DNA of 64,000 nucleotides, from positions 1-64,000 of IMG/VR virus record IMGVR_UViG_2934563053_000002; one strand, 5' to 3'. Below are positions 6,512 to 28,948 of this stretch, piece by piece. The stretch is from a virus (lineage: Duplodnaviria > Caudoviricetes). The translations under genes were made by a program, and so were the position numbers. The number at the start of each line of letters is the position of its first letter. Positions within the stretch are counted from its first letter, which is position 1. The notes below the pieces were generated by a model, which was not told the origin of the DNA, made no database searches, and saw only the letters and a list, made by a program, of their open reading frames with translations.

Positions 6512-6798
6512 CCGGACCCGAGCACTACCGCGAAGCCGAACAGCTCCTGTCCGACGCTTCCTACCAGCGTGACCGCAACGGACACCCGGTACGGAAGGAC
6601 GGCACCACCTTCCAGCCCGGCGAGCATGCGGCACTGATCGCCCGCGCTCAGGTGCACGCCACCCTCGCCCTCGCCGCCGCGACCGCCGCCCAGCTCGCGG
6701 ACCGCTACGTCGGCGACGGCGCCCACATCAACAACTGGCAGCCCGCCATCGGGTGGAAGCCCGAGCTGCCCAAGGAGGAGACCCCTCATGTCTTCTGA
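6508..6798 (+). CDS. Hypothetical phage protein
   Basis: MTGPEHYREAEQLL...AQVHATLALAAAT, a recurrent actinophage motif. Confidence 0.65.
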   Translation: MTGPEHYREAEQLLSDASYQRDRNGHPVRKDGTTFQPGEHAALIARAQVHATLALAAATAAQLADRYVGDGAHINNWQPAIGWKPELPKEETPHVF

Positions 6799-7789
6799 AC
6801 TCGTCAAGTCGCAGCCCGCCACCCCGGCGACGCTGCCCGAGAAGATGCAGTACGCGCAGGCCCTCGCCCAGTCCGGCATGCTGCCCAGCCAGTACCGCCA
6901 GCAGCCCGCCAACCTCCTCTACGCCCTGGAGTTCGCCGACTCCCTCGACCTCCACCCCATGGCCGCGATCACCGGCGTGCACGTCATCGAGGGCAAGCCG
7001 AGCGCCTCATCGTCGCTGATCTCCGCGCTGGTCCGGCGGGCCGGCCACAAGCTCCGCGTCCGGGGCGACGACACCAAGGCCGTCGCGCAGATCATCCGCA
7101 GCGACGACCCGGACTTCGTCTTCGAGTGCACCTGGACGATGGACCGCGCCCAGCAGGCCGGGCTCACCGGGAAGCAGACCTGGAAGAAGTACCCGGCCGC
7201 GATGCTTAAGGCCCGCGCGATCACCGAGGTTGCCCGCGAGGCGTGCGAAGAGGCCCTGTCCGGCATGCACTACACGCCGGAAGAGCTGGGCGCCCAGGTC
7301 GACGCCGAGGGCAACCCCATGGACGCCGAGGTGCAGCAGCTCCGCTCGGTGAAGCCGGGCGAGCCGGACCAGTGGCAGCAGCCCGCACCCCAGCAGGGAG
7401 AGCCCGACCGGGACTACGTTGCCGAGGCTCGGTCCGCCGGCGAAGCCGACGCCGTCCGCCGGATCTGGCAGGAGGCCAAGGCCGCCGGGCTGGACGACGT
7501 GAAGCTGGGCCACATCGCCGCGGTCGGCAAGAGCCTCGCCGCCGGGCCCCCGCCCGCCAAGCCGACCGAGCCCGAGACGGACACCGACGACGCCGTGGAC
7601 GGCGAGGTCGTCTCCGAGGAGGAGCAGGCCGCCCGCACAGCCGAACACGAGCTGCGCGACTGGGCCCAGGCCAACGGCCTCGACGACATCGCGGGCGACT
7701 TCGAGGGCGCCACCGGCATGCCGCTGGACCAGGCCCTCGCCCCCCAGATCCGCACCTTCCTCAACCAGCTCCGCGGCTCCGCGGCCTGA
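6788..7789 (+). CDS. RecT/Bet-like single-strand annealing recombinase
   Basis: LAQSGMLPSQYRQQPANLL...VIEGKP...WKKYPAAMLKARAI. Confidence 0.8.
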   Translation: MSSELVKSQPATPATLPEKMQYAQALAQSGMLPSQYRQQPANLLYALEFADSLDLHPMAAITGVHVIEGKPSASSSLISALVRRAGHKLRVRGDDTKAVAQIIRSDDPDFVFECTWTMDRAQQAGLTGKQTWKKYPAAMLKARAITEVAREACEEALSGMHYTPEELGAQVDAEGNPMDAEVQQLRSVKPGEPDQWQQPAPQQGEPDRDYVAEARSAGEADAVRRIWQEAKAAGLDDVKLGHIAAVGKSLAAGPPPAKPTEPETDTDDAVDGEVVSEEEQAARTAEHELRDWAQANGLDDIAGDFEGATGMPLDQALAPQIRTFLNQLRGSAA

Positions 7790-7848: not shown

Positions 7849-8370
7849 ATGGACATGAAGCAGTTGGCACTCGCCGAGGCTGCACTCAAGACTCTCGGCG
7901 ACGCCGTCAAGGACCAGCTCGCCGAGGTGCGCGAGCAGATGCAGACCCACCTCGACGACACCGGCGCCTCCCGCGTGGACGCCACCCTGCCCGACGGTAC
8001 GAAGGTCGCCACCGTCTCCCGCAGCGAGTCCAAGCCGAAGGCGGTCGTCATCGACGAGGCGACGCTGCTGGCCTGGGTGCGCGAGCACGCCCCCGACGAG
8101 ATCACCAGCCGCGTCGTCACGGAGATTCGCCCCGCCTACATGACGGCGCTCCTGGCCAGGCTCACCGCGGCCGGCGCCGCCGAGGTTCCGGACGAGGAGA
8201 CGGGCGAGATCCGGGAGGTGCCCGGGGTGGAGATGCGCACTTCGCGGGTCACCACGCACACGGTGCGCGCTGCGAAGGGCGGGGCCGAGGCCATCGTCGC
8301 CGCGTGGCGGTCCGGGCAGCTCGCCCACCTCGACCTGCCGCAGCTCACCGCCGGAGGTGAGGCAGCATGA
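7849..8370 (+). CDS. Conserved phage protein next to the recombinase (possibly Gam/Gp157-like)
   Basis: AGGAG RBS; DEETGEIREVPGV motif. Confidence 0.6.
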   Translation: MDMKQLALAEAALKTLGDAVKDQLAEVREQMQTHLDDTGASRVDATLPDGTKVATVSRSESKPKAVVIDEATLLAWVREHAPDEITSRVVTEIRPAYMTALLARLTAAGAAEVPDEETGEIREVPGVEMRTSRVTTHTVRAAKGGAEAIVAAWRSGQLAHLDLPQLTAGGEAA

Positions 8371-8957
8371 CCGCCCTCGCCTTCACCGACGCCGAGACAA
8401 CGCACCTGGACCCGTGGTTCGGCGATGCGTGGGAGATCGCCGTCATCCGCCGCGACACCGACGGCACCGAGGCCGAGTACCTGTGGCAGGTGCGGGTGCC
8501 GCTCTACCACGCCGACCCCGAGTCGCTGTCCATCGGCCGCTACCAGGAGCGGTTCGCTGTCTCCGCCGGCTGGGATGCCGCGGAGATGAACGAGGACGGC
8601 ACCGTCCGCGCGCGGCTGACCATGCCGGAGCTGCTGTTCGACGTGCAGGAAGCCCTCTGGGACGCGGTCCTGGTCGGCTCGAACCCGGGCTTCGACGTCC
8701 GGTTTCTGACGAAGTTGCTCCAGGAGCACAACCGCAAGCTGCCGTGGCACTACCGGCCGGTCGACATCGCGCCCCTCGCCGCGGGCTACCTGGTGGGCTG
8801 CGGGCGCGGCGCCGAGGTGACGCTCCCGTACTCCTCCCGCGGTCTCTCCCGCGCGGTGGGCGTGGAGCCCCCGCAGCAGGGTGTGGCGCACACGGCGCTG
8901 GGCGACGCGCGCTGGGCCCGGGACGTGTACGACGCGGCCACCGGGAGCGGGTCGTGA
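8367..8957 (+). CDS. DEDDh 3'-5' exonuclease
   Basis: FTDAETT, VGSNPGFD, HTALGDA. Confidence 0.85.
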   Translation: MTALAFTDAETTHLDPWFGDAWEIAVIRRDTDGTEAEYLWQVRVPLYHADPESLSIGRYQERFAVSAGWDAAEMNEDGTVRARLTMPELLFDVQEALWDAVLVGSNPGFDVRFLTKLLQEHNRKLPWHYRPVDIAPLAAGYLVGCGRGAEVTLPYSSRGLSRAVGVEPPQQGVAHTALGDARWARDVYDAATGSGS

Positions 8958-10902: not shown

Positions 10903-11693
10903 CCCGACCCCACGGCTACGCCCGCTACAAGCTCGACGGCTGCCGCTGCTACACCTGCGGCTTCGCCGCCGCCCAATACCGCGACGCCCGCGACCACGCC
11001 ATCCGCCGCGGAACCTGGCAGCCCTACGTCGACGCCGAACCCGCCCGCGCCCACGTGCGTGAACTCCTCGCCTGCGGACTCGGCACACGCACCATCGCCG
11101 CCCTCGCCCACCTCGACCGCAAGCAGGTGTACGTCCTCCTGCACGGCCGATCCGACCGCGGCACACCACCACCGGCACAGATCCGGCCGGCCACCGCCGC
11201 GGCGATCCTCTCCGTCGAGCCGACGTGGGAGAACCTGCCGGGCACGACCACCGTCGCCGCAGTCGGCACCGTGCGCCGTCTCCAGGCGCTGACCGCCAGA
11301 GGCTGGCCGCAGTCACGCCTCGCGGCCCGCCTGGACATGACCCCGAACAACTTCGGGGCGCTCCTCGCACGGGAGCACGTCACCGTGGCCACCGCGCGCC
11401 GCGTGCGCAGCCTCTACGACGAGCTGTGGCGCACCGACCCCCGTGACCACCGTGTCGACAACCAGGCATACAGCCGGGCACTCAACCAGGCCAAGGCCAA
11501 GCTGTGGGCCCCGGTCGGGGCGTGGGACGACGACACCATCGACGACCCGCAGGCGTACCCCGACTGGACTGGCCACTGTGGCACGTCCAGCGGCTACAAC
11601 GCCCACTTCCAAAACCGTGTCCTGCCTGCTTGCCAGCCGTGCCTCGACGCCCGCAGCGCACACCGTGCCGCAGTGAAGGCGGTGGCGGCATGA
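10899..11693 (+). CDS. Tandem-HTH DNA-binding protein with Cys motifs
   Basis: GCRCYTC, two HTH-like segments, C-terminal CGT...CQPC. Confidence 0.7.
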   Translation: MTRPHGYARYKLDGCRCYTCGFAAAQYRDARDHAIRRGTWQPYVDAEPARAHVRELLACGLGTRTIAALAHLDRKQVYVLLHGRSDRGTPPPAQIRPATAAAILSVEPTWENLPGTTTVAAVGTVRRLQALTARGWPQSRLAARLDMTPNNFGALLAREHVTVATARRVRSLYDELWRTDPRDHRVDNQAYSRALNQAKAKLWAPVGAWDDDTIDDPQAYPDWTGHCGTSSGYNAHFQNRVLPACQPCLDARSAHRAAVKAVAA

Positions 11694-12625
11694 CGAGTGC
11701 CCTGGCCTCCGACTGCTCCTGTACTCCGATCACGTCCTACGTGTGCGGGCACTGCTGGCACGACCAATGCCTCGACTGCGGCCAGTGCGCTGGACCCGGC
11801 TGCACCTGCCACTGCCTGCTCGGCTTCGAGCCCCGAGAGCAAACCGAGCAGCCGCTGTTCTGGCTGGGCGCACACCACGCCCGGTGGCTCGCCACCGCCG
11901 GGGTGCGGCTGTGCGTCTCCCGCCGCACCCTGGCCGGCCGCCGCAGCCTGCCCCGTGCCGCCGTCCCGTGGCTGTGTGACTCCGGTGGGTTCACCGAGTT
12001 GTCCCTGCACGGCACCTGGACCGTCCCAGCCGACGCATACGCGGCCGAAGTCCGACGATTCGCCAACAAGGTCGGCCTGATGGCGCACGCCGCACCGCAG
12101 GACTGGATGTGCGAGCCGTGGATGATCGCCAAGACCGGCCTGACCGTAGCCGAGCACCAGGCCCGCACCGTCGGCAACTACCTCGATCTGCGCGCTGCCG
12201 ACCCCGGCCTGCCGTTCATGCCCGTCTTGCAGGGATGGACACTCGCCGACTACGAGCACTGCATCAGCCTGTACGACAAGGCTGGCATCGATCTGGCCGC
12301 GCAGCCCCTCGTCGGAGTCGGGTCAGTGTGCAGGCGGCAGGGCAGCACCGAGGCTGCCGCGCTCCTCACGGCACTCGCCGGGCACGGGCTGAGTCTCCAC
12401 GGCTTCGGCCTGAAGATCGAGGGCCTTGCACTGGCTGCCGACTACCTGGCTTCCGCAGATTCCCTGGCCTGGTCCCGGGACGCCCGCTGGAACCCGGCCA
12501 TGCCTGGCCACGAACACGCCTCGTGCGCCAACTGCCAGCCCTACGCGCTGGCCTGGCGCGAACGGGTCCTCGACGTCCTCGATCGACCCCGGCAGCTTGC
12601 TCTGGACTTGGCGGTGGCGGCATGA
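11690..12625 (+). CDS. DpdA/queuine tRNA-ribosyltransferase (TGT)-like base-exchange protein
   Basis: CDSGGFTEL, PQDWMCEP, PVLQG, VGVGSVC, LHGFGLK, SADSLAW; 10-Cys N-terminal extension. Confidence 0.8.
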   Translation: MTSALASDCSCTPITSYVCGHCWHDQCLDCGQCAGPGCTCHCLLGFEPREQTEQPLFWLGAHHARWLATAGVRLCVSRRTLAGRRSLPRAAVPWLCDSGGFTELSLHGTWTVPADAYAAEVRRFANKVGLMAHAAPQDWMCEPWMIAKTGLTVAEHQARTVGNYLDLRAADPGLPFMPVLQGWTLADYEHCISLYDKAGIDLAAQPLVGVGSVCRRQGSTEAAALLTALAGHGLSLHGFGLKIEGLALAADYLASADSLAWSRDARWNPAMPGHEHASCANCQPYALAWRERVLDVLDRPRQLALDLAVAA

Positions 12626-18839: not shown

Positions 18840-19219
18840 CCAGCACCATGGAATGGATCCGCCGCCAGTACGACGTCCCCGCCCGCCACCGGATGCGCAT
18901 CGAATACGACGGCAAGCCCGCCACCATCACCGGCGCAGGCGGCGGCGGACACCTCCGCTTCCGCATCGACGGCGAGAAACGCATCACCACCGGCCACCCC
19001 TGCTACCGCATCGTCTACCCGGCCGTCCCCGAACCCACCCGACCGCGCGGCTGGTGCAAGCACTGCGGCAAGGACCGGGCCATGACCCGAGCCGGTGTCA
19101 TGGGCAACCACCACTGGGGCGGACGCACCTGGTCCAAGCCCTGCCCCGGGTCCGGAAAGCCGCCGTGGAAGCCCGTCCGCAACCAGACCCACCCCGGCGA
19201 GCAGAGGACCACACCGTGA
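18836..19219 (+). CDS. Hypothetical phage protein
   Basis: MEWIRRQYDVPA...GHLRFRIDG; C-terminal CKHC...CPGSG. Confidence 0.65.
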   Translation: MTSTMEWIRRQYDVPARHRMRIEYDGKPATITGAGGGGHLRFRIDGEKRITTGHPCYRIVYPAVPEPTRPRGWCKHCGKDRAMTRAGVMGNHHWGGRTWSKPCPGSGKPPWKPVRNQTHPGEQRTTP

Positions 19220-19608
19220 CCGCCCCGTACCGCGTACTCGTCACCGGCAGCCGCGACTGGCCCGCCTCCGCCGTGGTGTGGGCTGCGCTCAACAACGTCC
19301 GCGACGAAGCACTCATCACCGACCGGCCACTCGTCGTGGTCCACGGCGCCTGCCCGACCGGCGCCGACGCCCAAGCCCGCGACTGGTGCCTCACCGCCAC
19401 CAGCTTCGTCAACGGCGTCACCGAGGAACAACACCCCGCCAACTGGCAGATCAACGGGCGCCGGGCCGGGTTCATCCGCAACGCCCACATGGTCTACCTC
19501 GGCGCCGACCTCTGCCTCGCCTTCATCCGCAACGGCAGCCGCGGCGCCACCCACACCGCCGACCTCGCCGAGCAGGCCGGTATCCCCGTTAGGTGCTGGA
19601 CCACATGA
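19216..19608 (+). CDS. SLOG-family (DUF2493/YspA-like) protein
   Basis: RVLVTGSRDW, VVHGACPTGAD, AGFIRN..MV, SRGATHT. Confidence 0.88.
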   Translation: MTAPYRVLVTGSRDWPASAVVWAALNNVRDEALITDRPLVVVHGACPTGADAQARDWCLTATSFVNGVTEEQHPANWQINGRRAGFIRNAHMVYLGADLCLAFIRNGSRGATHTADLAEQAGIPVRCWTT

Positions 19609-19817
19609 CCACCGCCTACGACCGGCTCCTCGCCGAGGAGATACCCGTCCGCCCCGCACCCCCGCCGCACACACCCCAGCACACCCACCACCCCAGCGCC
19701 TGGACACCCGAGCAGCAGGCCCAGCACCGCGCCGACCTCCTCGCCGCACTCGACGCACACCACGCCCACCACCGCGGCCGACACCTCGCAGCCGTACCCG
19801 AACAGGACGCCGCCTAA
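19605..19817 (+). CDS. Hypothetical protein
   Basis: Coupled ORF. Confidence 0.5.
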   Translation: MTTAYDRLLAEEIPVRPAPPPHTPQHTHHPSAWTPEQQAQHRADLLAALDAHHAHHRGRHLAAVPEQDAA

Positions 19818-20170
19818 TGGCCCGCAGCCCCGCAAACCAGCCCGCACTCGGCGACCGCCACCACCCCATCCCCACCACACCCGACACCGTCCCAGCCGGC
19901 TGCTGGTGGTTCACCGACCCCGACGGCGCCCTATCCCTCCTCCCCGGATGCATGGCCCGCATCCAAGACCCAGAAGCCGAATGCACATGCGACACCCTCG
20001 GCGCCCGCCTGGAACGCACCCAACGGAAGCTCAGAGAAGAGCGAGCCGAACGGCAGTACGCCGAGGCCTGGTACCAGGCCCTGCACGCCGCCCTCGACGC
20101 CCACCCCGCCGGACCAGAAATCCGAGCCGACGCGCGCAGCAGACGAGATGCAACCCCCGCCCGACCGTAG
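19817..20170 (+). CDS. Hypothetical protein
   Basis: TAATG coupling; LPGC...CTC. Confidence 0.55.
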   Translation: MARSPANQPALGDRHHPIPTTPDTVPAGCWWFTDPDGALSLLPGCMARIQDPEAECTCDTLGARLERTQRKLREERAERQYAEAWYQALHAALDAHPAGPEIRADARSRRDATPARP

Positions 20171-20201
20171 ATCTCCGACAACCCCAGGCAGCGAGGACAC
20201 C

Positions 20202-20924
20202 ATGCCAAACCCCTGCCCCACCCCGGACAAGGTCCGCTACGCCACCCGAGCCGGCGCCGAGCAAGGCGCCCACCGCGCCCGGCTCCACTTCGACGACACC
20301 GTCTACCCGTATGCGTGCTCGTGCACGTGGTGGCACCTGTCCAAGAACCAGCCCGAGTCCACCCCGAGCCCGGAGGACGCGAGCCGTGCCGCCATCGAGC
20401 GGGTAGCCGCTCTCCCCAGCATCGCCTTCCGGGAGATCGTCGCCAACGACGCAGCCGGGAAGGGAGACCGTGATGAGCGTGGGGCACTGCGCGCTCCGGT
20501 GAACTTGACCCGTTGGCGTCGGGCGCTTGGCGAACTGCTGCACGACGTGCAAGAGCAACTGACGTCGAGCCGCTGGAACAAGACGTTGGCCGCGCAGGAC
20601 TGGCGGAAGCGGGCGACCGGCTACCAGGAGCAGCTGCTGCGACGGCAGGTGGAGTGCAAGCAGCTGCGGGCGGATGCGCACGCGGTGGGTGTGTCGAGCC
20701 GTGTGGCGTCGCGGCGGCGTGTGGTGGATGCGGCTCGGTTGTCGGGCGCTCCGGTGAAGGAGTTGCGGCGGCTGGCTGGCGAGATGGCGGTGGATCGGCT
20801 GATCGAGGCTCATCGGGGCGAGTTCGATGGACTGCTGGCTGAGGAGTACGCCGCGGTGGATCTGCCGCTGCCGGAGGGCGTCATGCAGCGGATGACGGAG
20901 GCGGAAGTGGGAGCGGCGTCGTGA
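20202..20924 (+). CDS. Hypothetical protein with N-terminal Zn finger
   Basis: CPTPDKVRY...YACSC.WWHL; GAGG RBS. Confidence 0.65.
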   Translation: MPNPCPTPDKVRYATRAGAEQGAHRARLHFDDTVYPYACSCTWWHLSKNQPESTPSPEDASRAAIERVAALPSIAFREIVANDAAGKGDRDERGALRAPVNLTRWRRALGELLHDVQEQLTSSRWNKTLAAQDWRKRATGYQEQLLRRQVECKQLRADAHAVGVSSRVASRRRVVDAARLSGAPVKELRRLAGEMAVDRLIEAHRGEFDGLLAEEYAAVDLPLPEGVMQRMTEAEVGAAS

Positions 20925-21373
20925 GCCTGCGCCTCGTGCCGGTCCGCTTCCGCCAGGCCCAAGCGTTCTGTGCGATGTGGCACCGGCACCATCCGGCGCC
21001 CCGCGGCATGGTCTTTGCCGTCGGTGTCGCCGATCAGCACGGTGTGCTTCGCGGTGTCGTTGTCGTCGGCCGGCCCGTCGCCCGGCACCTGGACAACGGG
21101 CAGACGCTGGAGGTCACCCGCACCGTCACGGACGGCACGGTCAATGCCAACTCGATGCTGTACGGCGCGGCGACAAGGGCGGCATGGGCGCTGGGCTACA
21201 CCCGGTTGATCACGTACACGCAGGCGGGAGAGAACGGTGCGAGCCTGCGCGCGGCCGGGTGGCGCGTGCTCGCTAAGCGGCCTGCCACCCCGGGCTGGGA
21301 CCGGCCGTCCCGCCCGCGTGAGCCCCGCGGTACGGAGCACATGCCGCGAACGCTGTGGGAGGCCGCCTCATGA
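20921..21373 (+). CDS. XF1762-family GNAT/Mom-like protein
   Basis: HRHH, GRPVARHLDNG.TLEVTR, NSMLYGAA, LGYTRLITYT...E.GASLRAAGW. Confidence 0.8.
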   Translation: MSLRLVPVRFRQAQAFCAMWHRHHPAPRGMVFAVGVADQHGVLRGVVVVGRPVARHLDNGQTLEVTRTVTDGTVNANSMLYGAATRAAWALGYTRLITYTQAGENGASLRAAGWRVLAKRPATPGWDRPSRPREPRGTEHMPRTLWEAAS

Positions 21374-21642
21374 CGTCCCGCCGCTGTGCCGGTTGCGGGC
21401 GCGCGTTGCGGGATCCGGTGTCGGTCTCGGCCGGTATGGGTCCGGTGTGTCGGCGTGCGGTCCGCGGGCCGGAGCCGCTGCGGATGCATGAAGGGGTGGT
21501 TCCTGCGGTGTCCGGCCAGCTCGAACTACCGGGCTGCGGTGAACTGCCAGCCACCTCCCCGCTCAACCACCGTCGTGTCCGCCGCCGCGGGCCGACCGTC
21601 GACCTGCCCGACATCGCCAACTACCCCGGAGGACTCTCATGA
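21370..21642 (+). CDS. DUF6011-like Zn-finger protein
   Basis: CAGCGRALRDPVSVSAGMGPVC. Confidence 0.75.
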   Translation: MTSRRCAGCGRALRDPVSVSAGMGPVCRRAVRGPEPLRMHEGVVPAVSGQLELPGCGELPATSPLNHRRVRRRGPTVDLPDIANYPGGLS

Positions 21643-21920
21643 CCGCCGTCCCAACGGAGCCGTTCCTGTCCGTTGCCGTGCGCTGCTTCGTCGTCGGTGC
21701 TGTCGGCACTGCGGTGGTGAACGCGGTGTGGTGGCTGATGGCCGGTGGGCCGATGCCGCCGTGGGCGTCGCTCGTCACGTCGATGGTGGTGATGGCTGCT
21801 GTTGGTCGGGTGGCTGCGTATCGGCGTGAGCGTGCGTGGCGGCGGGTGATCGCCGCCTATGACTTGCCGTCGTTCGGTGCGGATTGCGGGGACACGCCCG
21901 GTCGTCCGCCTGCTGTCTGA
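21639..21920 (+). CDS. Two-TM membrane protein
   Basis: Two hydrophobic stretches; GGAGG RBS. Confidence 0.55.
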   Translation: MTAVPTEPFLSVAVRCFVVGAVGTAVVNAVWWLMAGGPMPPWASLVTSMVVMAAVGRVAAYRRERAWRRVIAAYDLPSFGADCGDTPGRPPAV

Positions 21921-21975
21921 TCCCTTTCGTTTGCCCGGTCGCCGTGCGCGGCCGGGCCCACCCCCGGAGAACCTG

Positions 21976-22665
21976 ATGACCGAGCCCAACAGTGCTGCGC
22001 TCCTCGCTAGTAGCTGCGATGCCTGCCAGCACACTCTCAACTGGCACCGCAACGACGTCGGCTGCACCGTCCCTCGCTGCGCTTGTGGACGCTTCCAGCC
22101 CAGCATCCCCGAGACGCCTGCTGTGCGCCCGCGGGACGGCCGTACAGGCGCTCCGGCGTCTCCGTGCCCGCCGGACGCCCCGAGCGGGCCGCAGACGGGC
22201 GCACAGGACCGCGAGGCCCCAACTCATCCCGCCCGCCTCCGCGCTGTGGTGCTGTCCGCTCTCGCCGGCTGCGGTGTGCAGGTGCCCGCCGCGCGTGCGC
22301 AGGCCGCTGCGGAGACCGTGCTCGTGCACCTGGCCGACGCGCAGCAGCCCGGCGGCGGCGCAGTCCGCGTCACCACCGGCAGCAGCGAACGCCGCGACCG
22401 GTACGCGGCAGCAGTCCGCCGCCTCCACGAGACCGGCGGCCTCTACGCCCTCGACGCAGGCGAGGACACCCGCATCGCCGACGCCGTGACGCCCGTGGCC
22501 GACGCCGAGCAGCACGCGGTGTACCGGCTGCTCGCCGAGTCCCGCACCCGCGAAACCCGCCTGCGGGACGCACTCCAGCGCATCGACTCCAACATCGCGA
22601 ACGGCGGGGCATCCGACGGTCTCCTGATCCGCTCCATCCGAGACATCACAAGGAGTGCACTGTGA
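21976..22665 (+). CDS. Hypothetical protein
   Basis: N-terminal CDAC.H...C...C.C. Confidence 0.5.
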   Translation: MTEPNSAALLASSCDACQHTLNWHRNDVGCTVPRCACGRFQPSIPETPAVRPRDGRTGAPASPCPPDAPSGPQTGAQDREAPTHPARLRAVVLSALAGCGVQVPAARAQAAAETVLVHLADAQQPGGGAVRVTTGSSERRDRYAAAVRRLHETGGLYALDAGEDTRIADAVTPVADAEQHAVYRLLAESRTRETRLRDALQRIDSNIANGGASDGLLIRSIRDITRSAL

Positions 22666-23063
22666 CCACCGACGAACGACGCAAGCGGTTCCGCACGGCG
22701 GTGTACCAGGCCATCGAGCGAGGAGACGACCCCGCCGACGCCGCCAAGGCCGTATCCGACCAGGCGCAGCACGAGACGGTGACACGCCTCCGCGACGAGC
22801 GTGACCGGGCCATCCGCATCGCCGTGGCCCTGGAGAACCAGCTCGCCGCCGTGCAGGAGTACGCGCGGCACAGCGACGACACCGCACCCCGCACCCGCGA
22901 AACCATCCTCCGCCTCACCGACGGCTACCAGCCCGACGCCAGCGCCCCACAGCACCTCGCCCGCGGCAGCAACGCCGAGAAGTGCCCCGCATGCGTGAGC
23001 ACCAGACGGTCGTATGTGCCCCTCCTCCTCTGCCCCGGACCCGACGACGGAGCCGCATCGTGA
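22662..23063 (+). CDS. Hypothetical protein
   Basis: AAGGAG RBS, GTGA coupling. Confidence 0.55.
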   Translation: MTTDERRKRFRTAVYQAIERGDDPADAAKAVSDQAQHETVTRLRDERDRAIRIAVALENQLAAVQEYARHSDDTAPRTRETILRLTDGYQPDASAPQHLARGSNAEKCPACVSTRRSYVPLLLCPGPDDGAAS

Positions 23064-23509
23064 CCGTGTCCCGGGAACTAAGCGAAACCGAACTGGCAGT
23101 CCTCCGCAGAACCGCGGACGGCGACACCTACAGCGAGATCGGCCACCACATCAACCTCACCACCAAGAGCGTGGCGAACGTAGCCACCCGCGTCATGCGC
23201 AAACTCGGCGCGGTCAGCATGCCCCACGCCGTCTACCTCGCCACCCGCACCGGACTCCTCGACGCCCCCCTCGACAACCCCCTGACCGCCCGGCAGCTCG
23301 AAGCGCTCCTTTGGACCGCCCTCGGCTACACCGCGCAACACGCCGCCGACCACATGGGCGTGTCCCTCGACACCGTCCGCTGGCTCCTCCGCACAACCCA
23401 CCACCGGCTCGGCGCCCGCACCGCCACCCACGCCGTCGCCCTCGCCATGGCCGCCGGCCTCATCACCCCAGCCCACATCACCACCCGGCGACAGGAACAC
23501 GCCGCATGA
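23060..23509 (+). CDS. Tandem LuxR-HTH regulator (two HTH domains, no sensor domain)
   Basis: LSETELAVLRR.ADG.TY.EIG...KLG and LTARQLEAL...ALG.T....A..MGVS.DTVR. Confidence 0.8.
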   Translation: MTVSRELSETELAVLRRTADGDTYSEIGHHINLTTKSVANVATRVMRKLGAVSMPHAVYLATRTGLLDAPLDNPLTARQLEALLWTALGYTAQHAADHMGVSLDTVRWLLRTTHHRLGARTATHAVALAMAAGLITPAHITTRRQEHAA

Positions 23510-24606
23510 CCAGCACCCCGCTCGCCCAGACCCGGGTTGAGCCCAGCCGGGCTCTCATCCGCGCGCTGCAACACCAGATCGAGCAGCTCGCCGACAGCAT
23601 CTCCGGCAAAAACGCCCACCGCACCGCAGCCGGCTGGGTGTACATGACCTGCGTCCACGCCTGGGCCGCCGACCACCACCTCATCGACGGCCGCCTCCAC
23701 CGCGACGCGCAGCCCGCGCGGCAGCAGTTCCTCACCCAAGGCGGCACCAACCTCGCCTGGCTCACCTACGCCGTCGCCGACACCGCCGTCCACCCCTGCG
23801 CCTGGACACTCCTCGACCCCGCCTACGACAACCCCGTCCGCCACGCCTCACCCAGCGACACCGCCGCCAGCCGCCTACTCGACTGGTGGGCCGAGGACGC
23901 CCCCGCCCTCGCCTACCCCGTCGACACTGGGCCCGGCACGATCACCGGCTGGATCCTCGGCGACCTCCTCCAACTCGTCACCGACGAACGCCGTCTCGCC
24001 CACGCCCTCGCCCAATCCCCCTGGTGGCTCGCCGACGGCATCCTCGACCGCACCCTCATCCCCGCCGCCCGCGACTTCCGCGACGAGACGCTCCGCCTGA
24101 TAGACCCCACCTGCGGCACCGGCCACTTCCTCATACGCGCCATCGACATGCTCTGGGAGCTGCACACCACCGGCAGTCTCGCCCCGCGGCAGATGCGCAT
24201 GGACGGCGTCACCAGCTGGACCCCCATACCCCCCGCCGAGGCGGCCCGCCGCATCCTCGCCGGCGTCGACGGCATCGAACTCGACCCCATCACGGAGGCG
24301 GTGTGTCGCCTGCGCGTCACCGTCTACCTCGCGCACCTGCTGCACGAGGCCGGCGCCCTGCCCGGACCGCTGCGCCTGGACGCGATACCGCACCGGCTGA
24401 TGCCCCGGATCAGCGTCGGCGACAGCCTCCTCGCGGGGAAGGTGTCCCGTGCCGAGTACGCCCGGCTGCGCCCTGCCCAAGCCCGCATCGTCAACCTCGG
24501 CACCGACGCACCCGCAGATGGCGAGGCTCCGGACGGGGAGACGGCCCCGATCCCCGTCGTGCTCCCCCAGGGCACCGAGCGCGAACAACTCGCGCTCTTC
24601 TCCTGA
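23506..24606 (+). CDS. N6-adenine methyltransferase-like protein resembling the N-terminal half of BREX-2 PglX; no NPPY motif
   Basis: LGDLLQ...HALAQSPWWLADGILDRTL.PA...LIDPTCGTGHFL, GIELDP, ISVGDSL; stops without motif IV. Confidence 0.75.
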   Translation: MTSTPLAQTRVEPSRALIRALQHQIEQLADSISGKNAHRTAAGWVYMTCVHAWAADHHLIDGRLHRDAQPARQQFLTQGGTNLAWLTYAVADTAVHPCAWTLLDPAYDNPVRHASPSDTAASRLLDWWAEDAPALAYPVDTGPGTITGWILGDLLQLVTDERRLAHALAQSPWWLADGILDRTLIPAARDFRDETLRLIDPTCGTGHFLIRAIDMLWELHTTGSLAPRQMRMDGVTSWTPIPPAEAARRILAGVDGIELDPITEAVCRLRVTVYLAHLLHEAGALPGPLRLDAIPHRLMPRISVGDSLLAGKVSRAEYARLRPAQARIVNLGTDAPADGEAPDGETAPIPVVLPQGTEREQLALFS

Positions 24607-24614
24607 CCCCCTCC

Positions 24615-24689
24615 GCCCGAGTCGCGCAACCGGAAGACGCACCCGCCTTAAAAGCGGACCCAGTGCCGGTTCGAATCCGGCCTCGGGCA
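24615..24689 (+). tRNA. tRNA-Leu(UAA), short variable arm, no encoded CCA
   Basis: Acceptor GCCCGAG/CTCGGGC with A73; D arm GCG-CAACCGGAAGA-CGC; anticodon loop CT-TAA-AA; T arm GCCGG-TTCGAAT-CCGGC. Confidence 0.85.
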
Positions 24690-24717
24690 CAACCCACACG
24701 ACGCTGAAGGGAACCCG

Positions 24718-25317
24718 ATGAACAACCCCGGCCCGAGCCCCGACTGCGGCGAGGGATGGGCCTTCGCCCGACGAGTACTCACCGACCCCGCCCGGCAGCG
24801 CGAGACGCTCGCCAGCCTCGACCGGGCTCTCGACGGCATCACGCCGACCCCTGTCCCCGACACCTTCCGCGCCCGCCAAGGAGCAGCCATGACCGACCCC
24901 ACCGTGACCGACCTGCTGCGCGAGCTGTACGAGTACGCGGGGCACGGCTACCACTGCGACAACGTGGCCCCCGAGACAGCCCAGACCTACGAGGAATGGC
25001 TGTCCGACACGGCCCACGACCGGCCCGCCGTAGCCGCCGCCAAACAGGCAGCGCGCGCCCAGCAGCCCCCGCCACCCGGTTCGACCCGCGAGCAGCTCCC
25101 CGACCACCTCCTCGCACTCATCGACGTGCCGCCGTACACCAGCACCGCATGTGAGACGGCCCACGAGTGCGAGCGCGTAGTCGACGTCCACACCGAGCAC
25201 GCCGAGGAACTCCGGACAGCGGCGGCCGGCCAGCTTCACGACCGGTGCCGCCGTAACAACAAGTTCACCGGCGTCACCTGCGGCTGCGCCTGCCACCAGG
25301 CGAAGGAGCAGCCGTGA
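24718..25317 (+). CDS. Hypothetical protein
   Basis: YTSTACET...H..CR.NNKFTG..C.C.CH. Confidence 0.55.
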   Translation: MNNPGPSPDCGEGWAFARRVLTDPARQRETLASLDRALDGITPTPVPDTFRARQGAAMTDPTVTDLLRELYEYAGHGYHCDNVAPETAQTYEEWLSDTAHDRPAVAAAKQAARAQQPPPPGSTREQLPDHLLALIDVPPYTSTACETAHECERVVDVHTEHAEELRTAAAGQLHDRCRRNNKFTGVTCGCACHQAKEQP

Positions 25318-25457
25318 CCCGCGTCTACCGGTGGCTGACCACCCCAGTCGCCGTGCCCCGCTGGGTACGCATCGGGGTCCTCACCGCATCCGCCTTGCAA
25401 TGCGCCGCCTGGCTACTCCAAGGGGCGACCTGGGCCCTCGCCCACCTCACCCGCTGA
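25314..25457 (+). CDS. 47-aa hydrophobic peptide
   Basis: AAGGAG RBS, GTGA coupling, one TM segment. Confidence 0.45.
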   Translation: MTRVYRWLTTPVAVPRWVRIGVLTASALQCAAWLLQGATWALAHLTR

Positions 25458-25749
25458 CCCCCTGCCCGGCCGTTGGGGTCGGCCGGGCAGGGGGTCACGG
25501 TTCAATAACGGAAGATTTGGCCGTGAGCGCGTGAAAGCGTAGGCAGCCCGTACTCAGAGCGTAGCCACAACACGCAACAGACCTCAGTTGGCCGAAGCCC
25601 TGACGCAGACCACCACGTCGAGCCCGCAGGCGAGCGATATGCTGCTCCTGCTTGATCTCCCTCGCACCAACTTGCCGCCCAGCGCTGTAAGTCGGCGGCG
25701 GCGAGCCCCCGGCCAACCACCGGGAGGTTCACCGAGGGAGGGAGAGCAC

Positions 25750-25881
25750 ATGGACGATGAAGAAATGGGCATGCCGCCGGAGCCGCCGTGGAGCAGCTTC
25801 GAGCGGTGGTCGATCATCCTCGCGATGTTAGGCGTGCTCATGGCAACCATCTCCGTGGTGGCGCAGTTCGCGATGCGGTAA
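25750..25881 (+). CDS. 43-aa single-TM peptide with an in-frame TTA codon
   Basis: GAGGGAG RBS; MDDEEMG...WSIILAMLGVLMATISVVAQF; TTA at 25828. Confidence 0.55.
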   Translation: MDDEEMGMPPEPPWSSFERWSIILAMLGVLMATISVVAQFAMR

Positions 25882-25968
25882 CCCACCGCACGCCCGGGAG
25901 CGACCGACAGCCGCTGCACACGCAGCGAGCCCGGTCTCTTGATAGGCGACCGGGCCCGTGAACTGCAA

Positions 25969-26005
25969 GAAGGGCCTGTCCTGGTGCCCGCCAGGCGGGC
26001 CCTTC
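25969..26005. terminator. Hairpin between convergent units
   Basis: GAAGGGCCTGTCCTGG...CCAGGCGGGCCCTTC. Confidence 0.55.
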
Positions 26006-26151
26006 GCCATGCCCAGCGTTCAAGGACTGTGCTACCCGTACTTGCTCGCGAGCATGTACCCAGACCATAGCACGGGCATTTGTGGGAATCATGAAAACAG
26101 TAAGCGAAAGCCGCAGGTCAGAACCACCGAACATCCCACCGGCTGGGCCGC

Positions 26152-27528
26152 TCAAGCTGGCAGGTTCCCGGCGAGGTACTCCATCGCGCGCTCATCCAGC
26201 TCTGCCGCACACCGCAACCCCCGAGCCCGGAACCGGCCCAAATCCCGCCGCATACCCCGCACCGCCTTCACCGTCCGCGCCGACCGCACACCCTCCATGT
26301 GATCCAGGGCCTGATGCCACGTCGCGCACGCCTGCTCGATCCCACCCCGCTTGAGCTGCATCTCCGCACTCGCCACCAGATCGAGCGCCACGATCCGCGC
26401 ATACGTCCCGGACGGCCGCGCGCCGGCCGCCCGGCCGTACTGCTCAGCCGCCGCCCGGTGATCGCCCAACGTCTCGTGGACCTTCGCCGCCCGCGAATAC
26501 ACCGACGCAGCCGGCGGCCCCCACGCCATACCCCAGAACGGCACCTCATCGCCAGGCGCGTCCTCCAGCATGCGACGCGCCCGCTCGGCCTCGACCAGTG
26601 CTGTGCGCCGCTGGCCGGACTTCGCCAGCGTGTGGGCGTGGACGATGCGGAACAGCGCCTCCGTCCGCGAGTCGACCCGCCCCTTGGCCCGGTTCAGTCC
26701 CGTCTCCGCCAGCCCAAGACAGTGCTCCGGCCGACGCAACTTCAGCCCCTGCATCGCCATCGTCCGCATCACGAACCCGTCATGCCCGACCAGCCCGGAC
26801 TCCTCGGCGAGCCTGAACGACTGAAGGTAGTACCGCTGCGCAACACCCTGCTGCCCGGCGTCATACGCCTTCCAGCCCAGCAGATGCACACCACGGGAAG
26901 CCGCAGACAGCATCTGCTGGCGCGCCTCCTCAGTGCGGAACCGGGCCCGGCACAACGGCGCCACATCGTCCCGCAGATACTGCACGAGCGCCGTCCGACC
27001 GTGCTGCCCACCATGCCGCTCGTCCATATCCGAGAACATGCCGATCATGTCGCGGACCGCGGCGACCTCGACCATGCCGACAACAGTGCCGGAGCGCGCC
27101 GCGACCGTGCGCTCCGCGGCGTCTCTCACGGAGGCCAGCGGGAGAGCAGCGGCGGCCACCGAGTAGGCGGACGATGCGAGGAGGCGGCGTCGGTCCACTT
27201 CGTTCCTCCACAGCGGTAGCAGCACATCGATCGGATCGGGCCCCAACGTGAGTCCGACGTCCTCATCCTCCTCCGGCCAGTCGAGGCCGATATCGGCCGG
27301 GGCCAGCAGCCGGCCCAGCAGCCGAGACAAGGCCACCGCCAAGTACCGGGCCGTCATAGCCGACGGGAGGGTCCCGGCGACCCAGTGCGCGATCGCTGAC
27401 TTGTTCGTCCGCAGATGGTCCCCGCACTCGGCAGCCACGGCGCGTACCGCGCGAGCCACCGCATCGTAGGGCAGACCGGACTCCTCAATGACGTCTCTGA
27501 GCTGGGTGTTCGGCTTCCGCGTGGTCAT
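26152..27528 (-). CDS. Streptomyces HTH-TPR (NsdA-like) transcriptional regulator
   Basis: KPNTQLR...NKSAIAHWVAG..P, DRRRLL, DERHGGQHGR, GWKAYDAG...AQRYY. Confidence 0.85.
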   Translation of the reverse strand: MTTRKPNTQLRDVIEESGLPYDAVARAVRAVAAECGDHLRTNKSAIAHWVAGTLPSAMTARYLAVALSRLLGRLLAPADIGLDWPEEDEDVGLTLGPDPIDVLLPLWRNEVDRRRLLASSAYSVAAAALPLASVRDAAERTVAARSGTVVGMVEVAAVRDMIGMFSDMDERHGGQHGRTALVQYLRDDVAPLCRARFRTEEARQQMLSAASRGVHLLGWKAYDAGQQGVAQRYYLQSFRLAEESGLVGHDGFVMRTMAMQGLKLRRPEHCLGLAETGLNRAKGRVDSRTEALFRIVHAHTLAKSGQRRTALVEAERARRMLEDAPGDEVPFWGMAWGPPAASVYSRAAKVHETLGDHRAAAEQYGRAAGARPSGTYARIVALDLVASAEMQLKRGGIEQACATWHQALDHMEGVRSARTVKAVRGMRRDLGRFRARGLRCAAELDERAMEYLAGNLPA

Positions 27529-27658
27529 GCAGCTCCTGCCGTTAAACCGGATAAACCACGTGCCCGCTCGTAACCGTACCCACGGACAGCCCACGGGAGT
27601 TCACTGTTCGTCAGGCCCCCGCACCAGCGGGTGGCGCAACCTCAGGGAGGGAACACCC

Positions 27659-27973
27659 ATGACGACCGCGATCACCCCCACCGCGCAAGCGGACCCGCTC
27701 GCCCCGCGCCTGCTGCCGGGCGTCGGCGCGCTGTCCCACTCGACTGCCGCCCCCAGCACGGGGGCAACCCGCCCGTTCGGGCTGACCTGCACCACACCCC
27801 TCGCCGGCAACGCCGCCGCCGCGTCCCTCGACGGCCTCACCTACGACCCGCAGCGCCAGGTCAACGTCCACCACGACGGTGCCCCTCTCTCCAGGGACGA
27901 CCTGATGCTCCACGCCGGCACGAGCCAGAACACCCAGGCCGACCACCAGTGGTGGACCGACAAGGACCAGTGA
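27659..27973 (+). CDS. ATP-grasp-modified RiPP (graspetide) precursor, TgmA-like
   Basis: GGGAGG RBS; leader RPFGL and YDPQRQV; core TSQNTQADHQWWTDKDQ. Confidence 0.85.
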   Translation: MTTAITPTAQADPLAPRLLPGVGALSHSTAAPSTGATRPFGLTCTTPLAGNAAAASLDGLTYDPQRQVNVHHDGAPLSRDDLMLHAGTSQNTQADHQWWTDKDQ

Positions 27974-27979
27974 TATCCG

Positions 27980-28948
27980 ATGCCTGCTTCTGTCGCGATC
28001 ATCACCCGTGATCAGGACACAGCCGCCGACCTCGTCGTCCACGAACTACGCAAGCGCGACGCGGTCATCTACCGGTTCGACCTGGCCGACTTCCCCACCC
28101 GGATGACCCAGGCCGCCTACCTGATCCCCGGCCGCGCCCGCTGGACCGGAGCGCTCAAGGGGCAGCACCGCGACGTGGACCTCTCCGGACTGACAGCCGT
28201 CTGGTACCGCAAACCGTCCACCTTCCGGCTGCACCAGGGCATGTCTGCGACAGAGCAGGAGTGGGCGGCCACCGAAGCCCGAGCCGGCTTCGGTGGCCAG
28301 CTCGCCGCCCTCCCAGGCGTCCGCTGGATCAACCACCCGCACCGCAACGCCGAGGCCGACCACAAGCCGCTCCAGCTCGCCCGCGCCGACGCCTGCGGAC
28401 TCGCCGTCCCCGAGTCGCTGCTGACCAACGACCCCGACGCAGCCCGCGCGTTCTGCCACGCGCACCACGACACCGGGGTGATCTACAAACCGCTGCATGG
28501 TGGCCCCGCAAACGAGAACGGCCAGCCAGTCGCCCTCTGGGCAACCAGCGTCACCGCCGACGACATCACCGACGGAGTGGCCCGCAGCAGCCACCTCTTC
28601 CAGGCTCGGATCCCCTGCGCCTACGCGGTCCGACTCACCGTCGTCGGCGAGCAGATGTTCGCTGTCCGTATCGACGCCCCCGAGGACTCCGCAGCCGTCG
28701 ACTGGCGACAGGATCACGACCAGCTCCGCTACACCCCCATCGACGTGCCCGACGATGTGGCCGCGGGGACGCGCCAACTCTTGCAGTCCTTCGGCCTCAC
28801 CTACGCAGCCATCGACTGGGTCGTGACCCCCGACGGCCAGTGGACGTTTATCGGAGACCTGAACCCGAACGGGCAATGGGGCTGGATCCAGGCGCACACG
28901 GGCCTGCCGATCGCCGCTGCCATCGCCGACGAACTCGCCCGGGAGTAG
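27980..28948 (+). CDS. ATP-grasp ribosomal peptide maturase (TgmB/MvdC-like)
   Basis: D.AADLV, RFDLADFP, VWYRKP, HKPLQL..A...GL.VP.SL.TND, YKP, FQ, RLTVVG, DWR, LNPNGQW. Confidence 0.93.
   Translation: MPASVAIITRDQDTAADLVVHELRKRDAVIYRFDLADFPTRMTQAAYLIPGRARWTGALKGQHRDVDLSGLTAVWYRKPSTFRLHQGMSATEQEWAATEARAGFGGQLAALPGVRWINHPHRNAEADHKPLQLARADACGLAVPESLLTNDPDAARAFCHAHHDTGVIYKPLHGGPANENGQPVALWATSVTADDITDGVARSSHLFQARIPCAYAVRLTVVGEQMFAVRIDAPEDSAAVDWRQDHDQLRYTPIDVPDDVAAGTRQLLQSFGLTYAAIDWVVTPDGQWTFIGDLNPNGQWGWIQAHTGLPIAAAIADELARE

Follow-up and report, generated by a model that had tools for sequence, protein, structure and literature searches.

Analysis of a 64,000-nucleotide (nt) stretch of viral DNA (Duplodnaviria; Caudoviricetes; IMG/VR record IMGVR_UViG_2934563053_000002, positions 1 to 64,000; hereafter, the window) indicates that positions 24615 to 24689 of the plus strand probably hold a functional phage-encoded type I tRNA-Leu(UAA) gene, that is, a leucine tRNA gene with a short variable loop, whose product would decode UUA independently of bldA. 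In Streptomyces, bldA encodes the only chromosomal UUA-reading tRNA; it is developmentally timed and gates about 2% of the genes, among them the master regulators that govern sporulation and the making of antibiotics. A close relative of the window phage is a prophage of Streptomyces qinglanensis (locus L054, genome G004), and the viral-contig loci L001 and L023 align to the window identically; S. qinglanensis is the host to which the tRNA comparisons below refer.

The tRNA gene and its predicted structure

ARAGORN called a single tRNA in the window (24615-24690, plus strand; tRNA-Leu, anticodon taa) and no other in the 78,454-bp contig that makes up the entire virus record, and the Rfam model RF00005 matched positions 24615-24689 from end to end (model positions 1-71) at 49 bits, with a gathering score of 29 and an E value of 1.9e-07. 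The S. qinglanensis Leu tRNAs themselves score 49-55 bits with Rfam. The gene and two of its parts are located as follows.

24615..24689, plus strand: predicted type I (short variable loop) tRNA-Leu(UAA), tRNA positions 1-73, with the 3' CCA not encoded (ARAGORN, Rfam)
24648..24650, plus strand: anticodon TAA (UAA) in the loop CUUAAAA, predicted to decode UUA and possibly UUG (ARAGORN, tRNA position 35; cmscan alignment)
24659..24664, plus strand: variable region CCCAGU, 6 nt, the last base being U48 (cmscan and ARAGORN structures)

The acceptor stem has 7 bp and is followed by U8; the D stem has 3 bp (GCG/CGC) and closes an 11-nt D loop, CAACCGGAAGA; the anticodon stem has an unpaired C27·A43 at its top with 4 bp below it; the T arm reads GCCGG/UUCGAAU/CCGGC; and the discriminator base, A73, lies at 24689. 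Besides 27·43, all 19 stem pairs are intact, as are the tertiary and identity positions. The first-pass annotation, which was made from the letters of the sequence, had described a cloverleaf beginning 8 nt past the stop codon of a PglX-like gene, with the anticodon TAA, A73, a 3-bp D stem, a C-A mismatch, and a 6-nt variable region, and had named ARAGORN as a check; the sequence, ARAGORN, which called tRNA-Leu(taa), and Rfam agree on each of these features. Its description of a prophage tRNA with the bldA anticodon, a Leu-type D arm, and no long arm thus stands.

Leucine identity

Published work on leucyl-tRNA synthetase (LeuRS) gives a set of positions by which the identity of this tRNA can be judged (articles are cited here and below for individual passages). 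The determinants for the E. coli enzyme are A73, A15-U48, G18G19, and A20a, with the anticodon not being read, and the long arm is not crucial, arm-truncated tRNAs still being charged (PMC9976931). For A. aeolicus LeuRS, A73, U8-A14, G18, and G19 are critical, and removal of the arm mainly reduces affinity (PMC2377443). The window tRNA has U8-A14, A15-U48, G18G19, A20a, A73, and a 3-bp D stem, and its variable region reaches the minimum of 5 nucleotides, nt 48 among them; the tRNA matches the determinants reported for E. coli, A. aeolicus, and S. coelicolor, so that every published bacterial Leu element is present. What it does not have is the long variable arm of class II tRNAs, in place of which there is a loop of 6 nt.

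The same positions separate leucine tRNAs from the others within the host. The host set was drawn from 52 of the 60 Rfam tRNA rows for S. qinglanensis, with 8 rows of duplicate score skipped, and 53 tRNAs were parsed; all six host tRNA-Leu and both phage tRNAs showed A15, U48, and A73 together with a 3-bp D stem, a combination that none of the 45 other host tRNAs showed. For the acceptor and T arms, the best host match of the window tRNA was tRNA-Leu(UAA), at 27/32 positions, and the best matches of the D arm were host Leu tRNAs. On this identity signature, the best reading is that the window gene encodes a predicted leucine tRNA.

The first-pass annotation had also raised the possibility that the short-arm tRNA is charged with something other than leucine, so that UUA is mis-decoded, and both the missing textbook class II arm and the bases A35 and A36, which are common to tRNA-Phe, could be read in that way. 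We regard such recoding as very improbable: LeuRS uses neither the arm nor the anticodon (PMC9976931), the full Leu signature was seen in none of the 45 non-Leu host tRNAs, all known bacterial Leu determinants are present, and a Streptomyces LeuRS does charge short-arm tRNA-Leu (see below). The window tRNA, moreover, lacks G34 and G20 (PheRS), U35 (LysRS and TyrRS), G3·U70 (AlaRS), and G73 with a long arm (SerRS), determinants that are in part given in PMC9976931. GenBank annotators and ARAGORN likewise label the phage tRNAs of this kind as Leu, by anticodon only.

A class of short-arm tRNA-Leu(UAA) genes in phages

In all, 46 viral contigs ranging from 33 to 72% GC matched a search pattern with a fixed T arm, in which a short spacer joined the anticodon loop to the T arm; in 45 of these contigs ARAGORN called a tRNA-Leu(taa) of 74-78 nt. 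A second pattern, which fixed the D loop and anticodon loop and left the T stem free, matched at least 119 viral contigs, of which 76 loci were analyzed. A short-arm taa tRNA was present in 76/76 of these loci (71 unique sequences), with a 3-bp D stem in 74/76 and U48 in 74/76. The Ser, Tyr, and other Leu tRNAs of the same viral loci are long-armed; only the UAA isoacceptor is short.

Covariation was assessed on 28 of 38 unique sequences; 7 members of a lineage whose D stem has 4 bp were left out, as were 3 sequences parsed with an extra 5' base. In this alignment, 95.9% of the cells were paired in the cloverleaf and 18 of the 20 pairs had changed on both sides, and none of 500 shuffles scored as high, nor did any slid register come near. 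A14, G18, and A73 were invariant, and U8, A15, G19, A20a, and U48 were at least 90% conserved. Judging by these patterns of substitution, the short-arm tRNA-Leu(UAA) class is under selection and the window tRNA is a member of it, sharing the CUUAAAA loop, the 3-bp D stem with a CAAY..GG.AGA loop, U48, and A73, and being without the class-typical 5-nt loop and the fully paired anticodon stem. The rarity of the short arm that the first-pass annotation had implied was not supported: a short arm is standard in this large phage class and in many Streptomyces tRNA-Leu(CAA) genes. As an observation apart, G1·U72, which is unusual for an elongator tRNA, is the commonest first acceptor pair in the viral alignment (14/28).

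Members of the class also occur in cultured phages. Among the cultured-phage records matching one family member, 19 of 21 annotate the site as tRNA-Leu, and short-arm UAA tRNAs of 73-77 nt were confirmed in Rhodococcus phage Trina, Prochlorococcus phage P-SSM7, Serratia phage Kamaji, and Lactobacillus phage LP65, that of Trina lying beside an 86-nt tRNA-Leu(caa). These four tRNAs resemble that of the window in having UAA, a 3-bp D stem, and A73 (and, in Kamaji, the 27·43 mismatch as well), whereas their loop is 5 nt long and ends in U, in contrast to the 6-nt loop of the window tRNA. Their setting differs too: these phages infect hosts of low to medium GC content in which UUA is common, so that plain codon supply explains their tRNAs, whereas for the window phage no codon is rarer than UUA, whose reading is gated by bldA. 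In P-SSM7 (L239), the short-arm tRNA-Leu(UUA) is clustered with tRNA-Ile(AUA) and tRNA-Arg(AGA), directly 5' of a gene annotated as "tRNA ligase."

Direct similarity searches returned little. Megablast of window positions 22000-27000 against cultured phages gave no match; blastn with the window tRNA alone gave four weak records, none of them from Streptomyces; and blastn with the host bldA-type tRNA matched no Streptomyces phage. The short-arm UAA pattern was found in 10 of 401 sampled Streptomyces genomes, versus a single control match; two of the ten matches proved to be tRNA-Ser arms, leaving 8 genomes that represent at least two lineages. When all species genomes were scanned more narrowly, 7 loci emerged, every one in Streptomyces. 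The second of these short-arm tRNA(UAA) lineages (L048-L053, L114, L116, L118, and L122, from Streptomyces genomes and one plasmid) has a 4-bp D stem, a 6-8-nt loop, and G15/C48, as read by eye, and its amino acid identity is less clear than that of the window type; ARAGORN reads two of the copies as tRNA-Phe(aaa). Eight of its ten loci lie about 300-450 bp from a tRNA-Ile(UAU) gene and one lies by a tRNA(CAU) gene, L114 standing alone.

Relation to bldA and to the type I tRNA-Leu of Streptomyces

The closest functional precedent comes from S. coelicolor, whose naturally occurring tRNA-Leu(CAA) is of type I and carries a 5-nt loop (Fan et al. 2019, PMC6614811). A single S. coelicolor LeuRS charges both types, with a kcat/Km of 6.25 for type I and 14.2 for bldA tRNA; bldA tRNA given a 5-nt loop retains 14% of its efficiency, and bldA tRNA without all 5 arm base pairs keeps its accepting capacity (PMC6614811). 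The minimum loop for this enzyme is 5 nt including nt 48 (PMC6614811), which places the 6 nt of the window tRNA within the tolerated range. According to Pettersson & Kirsebom 2011, as cited in PMC6614811, a tRNA-Leu(CAA) given the anticodon UAA replaces bldA. That engineered tRNA is a short-arm UUA reader in Streptomyces, as the product of the window gene would be, with the difference that it is a laboratory construct whose expression was chosen by the experimenters.

Type I tRNA-Leu(CAA) of the phage-class design was confirmed by ARAGORN in 17 of 61 sampled Streptomyces genomes (L243-L272), with a further 6 matched by the string only; these tRNAs are 73-76 nt long and have a 3-bp D stem and the loop nCAGU or nCAGC. 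Type I tRNA-Leu(CAA) is therefore common but not universal in Streptomyces. S. qinglanensis does not have it, its CAA tRNA being long-armed. The S. qinglanensis LeuRS is 79-83% identical to the enzymes of four genomes that do carry type I tRNA-Leu(CAA), and the junction before its KMSKS-type motif (LLG-KMGKS) is the same as theirs, a similarity that is compatible with competence, though no proof of it.

The window tRNA is like the S. coelicolor type I tRNA-Leu(CAA) in its short loop, 3-bp D stem, CCAAY..GG.AGAG-type D loop, A14, A73, and UUCGAAU-type T loop, and overall identity to the Streptomyces type I tRNAs is ~65-75%. The S. coelicolor tRNA, in contrast, has the anticodon CAA, is chromosomal and apparently essential, and has a 5-nt loop ending in C48, whereas the window tRNA has UAA, is borne by a prophage, and has a 6-nt loop ending in U48. 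With the bldA-type tRNA of S. qinglanensis, which was located by Rfam matches and ARAGORN, it shares the anticodon UAA, the T stem, the first five acceptor pairs, and A73; that tRNA, unlike the window tRNA, is of type II, 87 nt long, with a 9-nt D loop, a CUUAAAC loop, and an encoded CCA. A pattern for host bldA that combined a CTTAAAA loop with a long arm had no match in 5 genomes, the loop in the host being CUUAAAC. Furthermore, bldA is chromosomal and has its own promoter and developmental timing, whereas the window gene lies inside a prophage. The window tRNA gene is not a bldA orthologue. Animal mitochondrial tRNA-Leu(UUR) offers another likeness, in that it has UAA and no long arm and its identity is set by A73 and A14 (PMC9976931), but it is floppy in structure, is served by a dedicated LeuRS, and is not charged by S. 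coelicolor LeuRS (PMC6614811).

Location within the prophage

The relative shares window positions 1 to 39.6 kb as a mosaic at ~90% identity, with the tRNA in the same place, and the tRNA has been kept there although the adjoining 4.8 kb has been replaced. The relative's integrase, which is 97.9% identical to that of the window phage over 466 amino acids, lies ~110 bp from an intact tRNA-Pro(GGG), the 3' part of which is repeated perfectly over 46 bp at the opposite end of the prophage (G004:C31), marking the att site. The relative's prophage is ~89 kb long and has the early region and integrase in common with the window phage, the structural module being different. When its ends and integrase are mapped onto the window contig, the contig is found to begin ~150 bp inside the left prophage end and to stop within the integrase gene; the whole contig is thus prophage DNA. 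The Leu tRNA lies ~24.6 kb from one prophage end and 53 kb from the other, and its position deep inside the prophage, together with att being at tRNA-Pro(GGG), means that it is not a remnant of an att site, as the first-pass annotation had argued from its position within an operon.

These data also bear on tRNA-dependent lysogeny, in which integration would destroy the host tRNA-Leu(UAA) and the phage copy would replace the loss. Such lysogeny has been described for temperate actinophages (PMC10865867), and the window phage encodes a tyrosine integrase. In the relative's lysogen, where the point was examined, att is the tRNA-Pro(GGG) repeat with tRNA-Pro left intact, and the host's own tRNA-Leu(UAA) gene stands undamaged on a separate contig; we therefore consider this explanation exceedingly improbable.

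TTA codons and the proposed role

If the window gene acts as a UUA reader, the codons that it serves are few. The candidate TTA-containing genes of the phage, and the regulator gene in which a further TTA was considered, are as follows.

Contig 74535-74930: 131-amino-acid gene with TTA at codon 36, third-position GC content (GC3) of 0.90; the TTA is conserved in the relative
25588..25881, plus strand: small open reading frame (ORF) with TTA at codon 81 of 97; no family, absent from the relative, a doubtful gene
26152-27594, minus strand: 480-amino-acid ORF for an HTH/TPR-like regulator (phrog_10886, E = 3e-69)

The ORF at 25588..25881 possibly represents a 43-amino-acid membrane peptide. The TTA at 27571-27573 (minus strand) would be codon 8 of the regulator ORF, in frame with an upstream GTG; it was rejected as a coding TTA and assigned to the probable 5' leader because an ATG with AGGAG stands at residue 23 and the PHROG match runs from residue 26. 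Four TTA codons occur among 19,209 codons in the relative and one among 9,980 in the host flank. Phage and host are thus alike in the rarity of TTA, which excludes bulk codon supply as the reason for the tRNA.

We infer that the gene is expressed, that its product is processed and charged, and that it bypasses bldA, by the following route. The tRNA would be transcribed within an early/middle plus-strand operon, between the gene for a PglX fragment and the next ORF, and from its place in this early/middle lytic operon one would expect it to be expressed upon infection or induction. The precursor would be cut by RNase P and undergo 3' processing, with the CCA being added by a host enzyme; host LeuRS would then attach leucine, and the charged tRNA would read UUA and possibly UUG. 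Translation of the TTA-containing phage genes would in this way be freed from bldA during infection or induction, and that of host TTA genes incidentally as well. The likely role of the tRNA would be to free one or a few TTA genes from bldA, possibly with host TTA genes among those affected. Among the three roles proposed in the first-pass annotation (bypass of bldA timing, replacement of a tRNA cut by an anticodon nuclease, and mis-decoding of TTA), the putative bypass is the best supported.

Several points weigh against a functional UUA reader. The TTA codon is not enriched in the phage (3 among the 19,397 codons that 83 crudely called genes comprise), and with one of these probably in a leader and one in a doubtful ORF, no more than one or two codons would require the tRNA. 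Streptomyces LeuRS leucylates type I tRNA less well than type II, and the LeuRS enzymes of E. coli and S. purpurogeneiscleroticus cannot charge type I tRNA (PMC6614811). The minimum free energy (MFE) fold of the window tRNA (-32.0 kcal/mol, z = -2.55) is other than the cloverleaf, which at -30.1 kcal/mol lies 1.9 above it, in a model without tertiary pairs or modifications. The unpaired C27·A43 and the 6-nt loop both depart from the family norm, the loop being of 5 nt in 68 and of 4 nt in 8 of the 76 viral loci. Finally, the match of the acceptor and T arms to host tRNA-Leu(UAA) is approached by tRNA-Glu(CUC), which at 26/32 stands barely under it, and a tRNA from a low-GC phage (L015) agrees with the window tRNA at ~30/32 positions by eye, the T arm there being fixed by the search pattern. 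Descent of the gene from host bldA by deletion of the arm was considered separately and is not demonstrable from these values (tRNA-Glu, 26/32, and L015, ~30/32, versus 27/32 for the bldA-type tRNA).

Taken together, the mismatch, the additional base in the variable loop (a one-base insertion relative to most members of the 28-sequence alignment, the relative's tRNA having 5 nt), the alternative MFE fold, and the near absence of TTA from the phage could point to a decaying or silent passenger, derived from a widespread phage class and no longer used in a high-GC phage. We consider this quite improbable. The Rfam score falls within the range of the host Leu tRNAs, the 19 other stem pairs and the identity positions are intact, and the gene was retained in the mosaic relative despite the replacement nearby. 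A 27·43 mismatch is also present in the relative (as C·C), in L047 and L119, and in Kamaji, and its recurrence across several lineages marks it as a lineage trait and not as damage.

Neighboring genes and a possible link to defense

The tRNA lies between two genes on the same strand: the upstream ORF stops at 24606, leaving a gap of 8 nt, and the downstream ORF starts at 24718, 28 nt past the tRNA. The neighboring genes and other landmarks of the prophage are listed below, with the assignments from RecT through the integrase made by PHROG/Pfam/PADLOC scans; positions marked "contig" refer to the whole contig.

23509..24606, plus strand: stand-alone N-terminal PglX fragment with S-adenosylmethionine motif I (PADLOC PDLC02529 PglX, E = 1.2e-31, profile positions 56-328 of 1189)
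24718..25317, plus strand: 199-amino-acid ORF, GC3 of 0.88, from the ORF list; no Pfam, PHROG, or PADLOC match
6788-7789, plus strand: RecT
8367-8957, plus strand: exonuclease subunit
11504-12625, plus strand: DpdA (PF23859, E = 1e-83)
14.3-16.1 kb, plus strand: replication initiator and DnaC-like loader
20921-21373, plus strand: Mom-like protein (phrog_1384, E = 2e-36)
41.6-44.8 kb, plus strand: terminase and portal
Contig 66994-68220, plus strand: endolysin
Contig 77057-78454, plus strand: tyrosine integrase
27980-28948 and about 28.9-30.08 kb, plus strand: MvdD-type ATP-grasp protein followed by a PCMT-type O-methyltransferase, within the 4.8-kb segment lacking in the relative

The PglX-like assignment of the upstream gene in the first-pass annotation was borne out by PADLOC as to family, with the qualification that only an N-terminal fragment is present. 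This fragment terminates ahead of the catalytic motif and has 87% amino acid identity in the relative. The ORF of 530 amino acids that starts at 23014 opens with ~165 residues of R/P/H-rich low complexity and is probably over-extended on its 5' side, the likely real product being that of 23509-24606. The fragment might act as a decoy that draws off the host's Pgl/BREX, or it might be what is left of a truncated gene. Its adjacency to the tRNA is not general, as 0 of 8 other high-GC short-arm tRNA loci encode any of five neighbor proteins. A scan of 19000-28500 for sigma-70 promoters and terminators, whose consensus is uninformative for Streptomyces, gave no promoter and 3 terminator-like sites versus 2.4 expected, none of them at the tRNA. 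A look-up of sequencing runs containing the locus gave two DNA entries, one of them a possible source, and no RNA run. The presence of DpdA and the Mom-like protein suggests that the phage probably hypermodifies its own DNA, and the pair of MvdD-type ATP-grasp protein and PCMT-type O-methyltransferase is, we presume, reminiscent of graspetide-type peptide maturation.

The company of anti-restriction-type genes (DpdA, the Mom-like protein, and the PglX fragment) is one of the observations that would fit a role in counter-defense, in which the phage supplies a UUA reader that cannot be cut by a host tRNA-targeting nuclease when bldA-type or type II tRNAs are destroyed; the missing long arm and A38, where the host tRNA has C38, would then be escape features. 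Phage tRNAs that evade tRNA-cutting defenses provide a general precedent (PMC10264068, PMC13056530), cleavage of type II tRNAs by SLFN11 is cited in PMC13056530, the UAA isoacceptor is the only short one beside the Ser, Tyr, and other Leu tRNAs of these viral loci, and the class member of P-SSM7 adjoins the annotated "tRNA ligase" gene. On the other side, the literature searched gave no bacterial nuclease directed at tRNA-Leu(UAA) or at the type II arm; the bacterial Schlafen studied in PMC13056530 cuts the anticodon arm, and that paper makes no mention of Leu. The chromosomal type I tRNA-Leu(CAA) of many Streptomyces has a short arm without any phage conflict, and bldA is dispensable for growth, which would make its cutting a weak defense in Streptomyces. 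We therefore view counter-defense as rather unlikely. Slightly more doubtful still is a broader proposal, namely, that the tRNA serves a developmental override, with TTA-gated phage genes and host genes (developmental and antibiotic regulators, for example) being unlocked at induction and outside their usual period, or an escape, the arm-less design of hundreds of phages existing because bacterial defenses recognize type II tRNA-Leu(UAA) and cut it. The reading that we favor remains a functional UUA-decoding tRNA that would relieve a small number of phage genes of their dependence on bldA.

Implications

Two elements of this picture were already known: phage tRNA-Leu(UAA) genes of the same design are in GenBank, and the charging of type I tRNA-Leu has been published for Streptomyces. 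Our literature search, which lay mostly outside subscription journals, found no paper in which the short-arm class in phages is discussed, nor one on a Streptomyces phage with its own UUA reader; an earlier description cannot be excluded. Papers on TTA codons in Streptomyces phages assume, in the passages cited, dependence on host bldA (PMC10732093, PMC13350457).

Short-arm Leu tRNAs are found in hundreds of phages and on many Streptomyces chromosomes; of the LeuRS enzymes of other hosts, that of E. coli could not charge the Streptomyces type I tRNA. Should the override or escape proposal prove true, the type I tRNA-Leu(UAA) class would be a phage-specific adaptation and not a neutral variant. 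If the favored reading is true, a UUA reader carried by a prophage would be a natural bypass of bldA, and such a bypass could help in expressing TTA-containing gene clusters.

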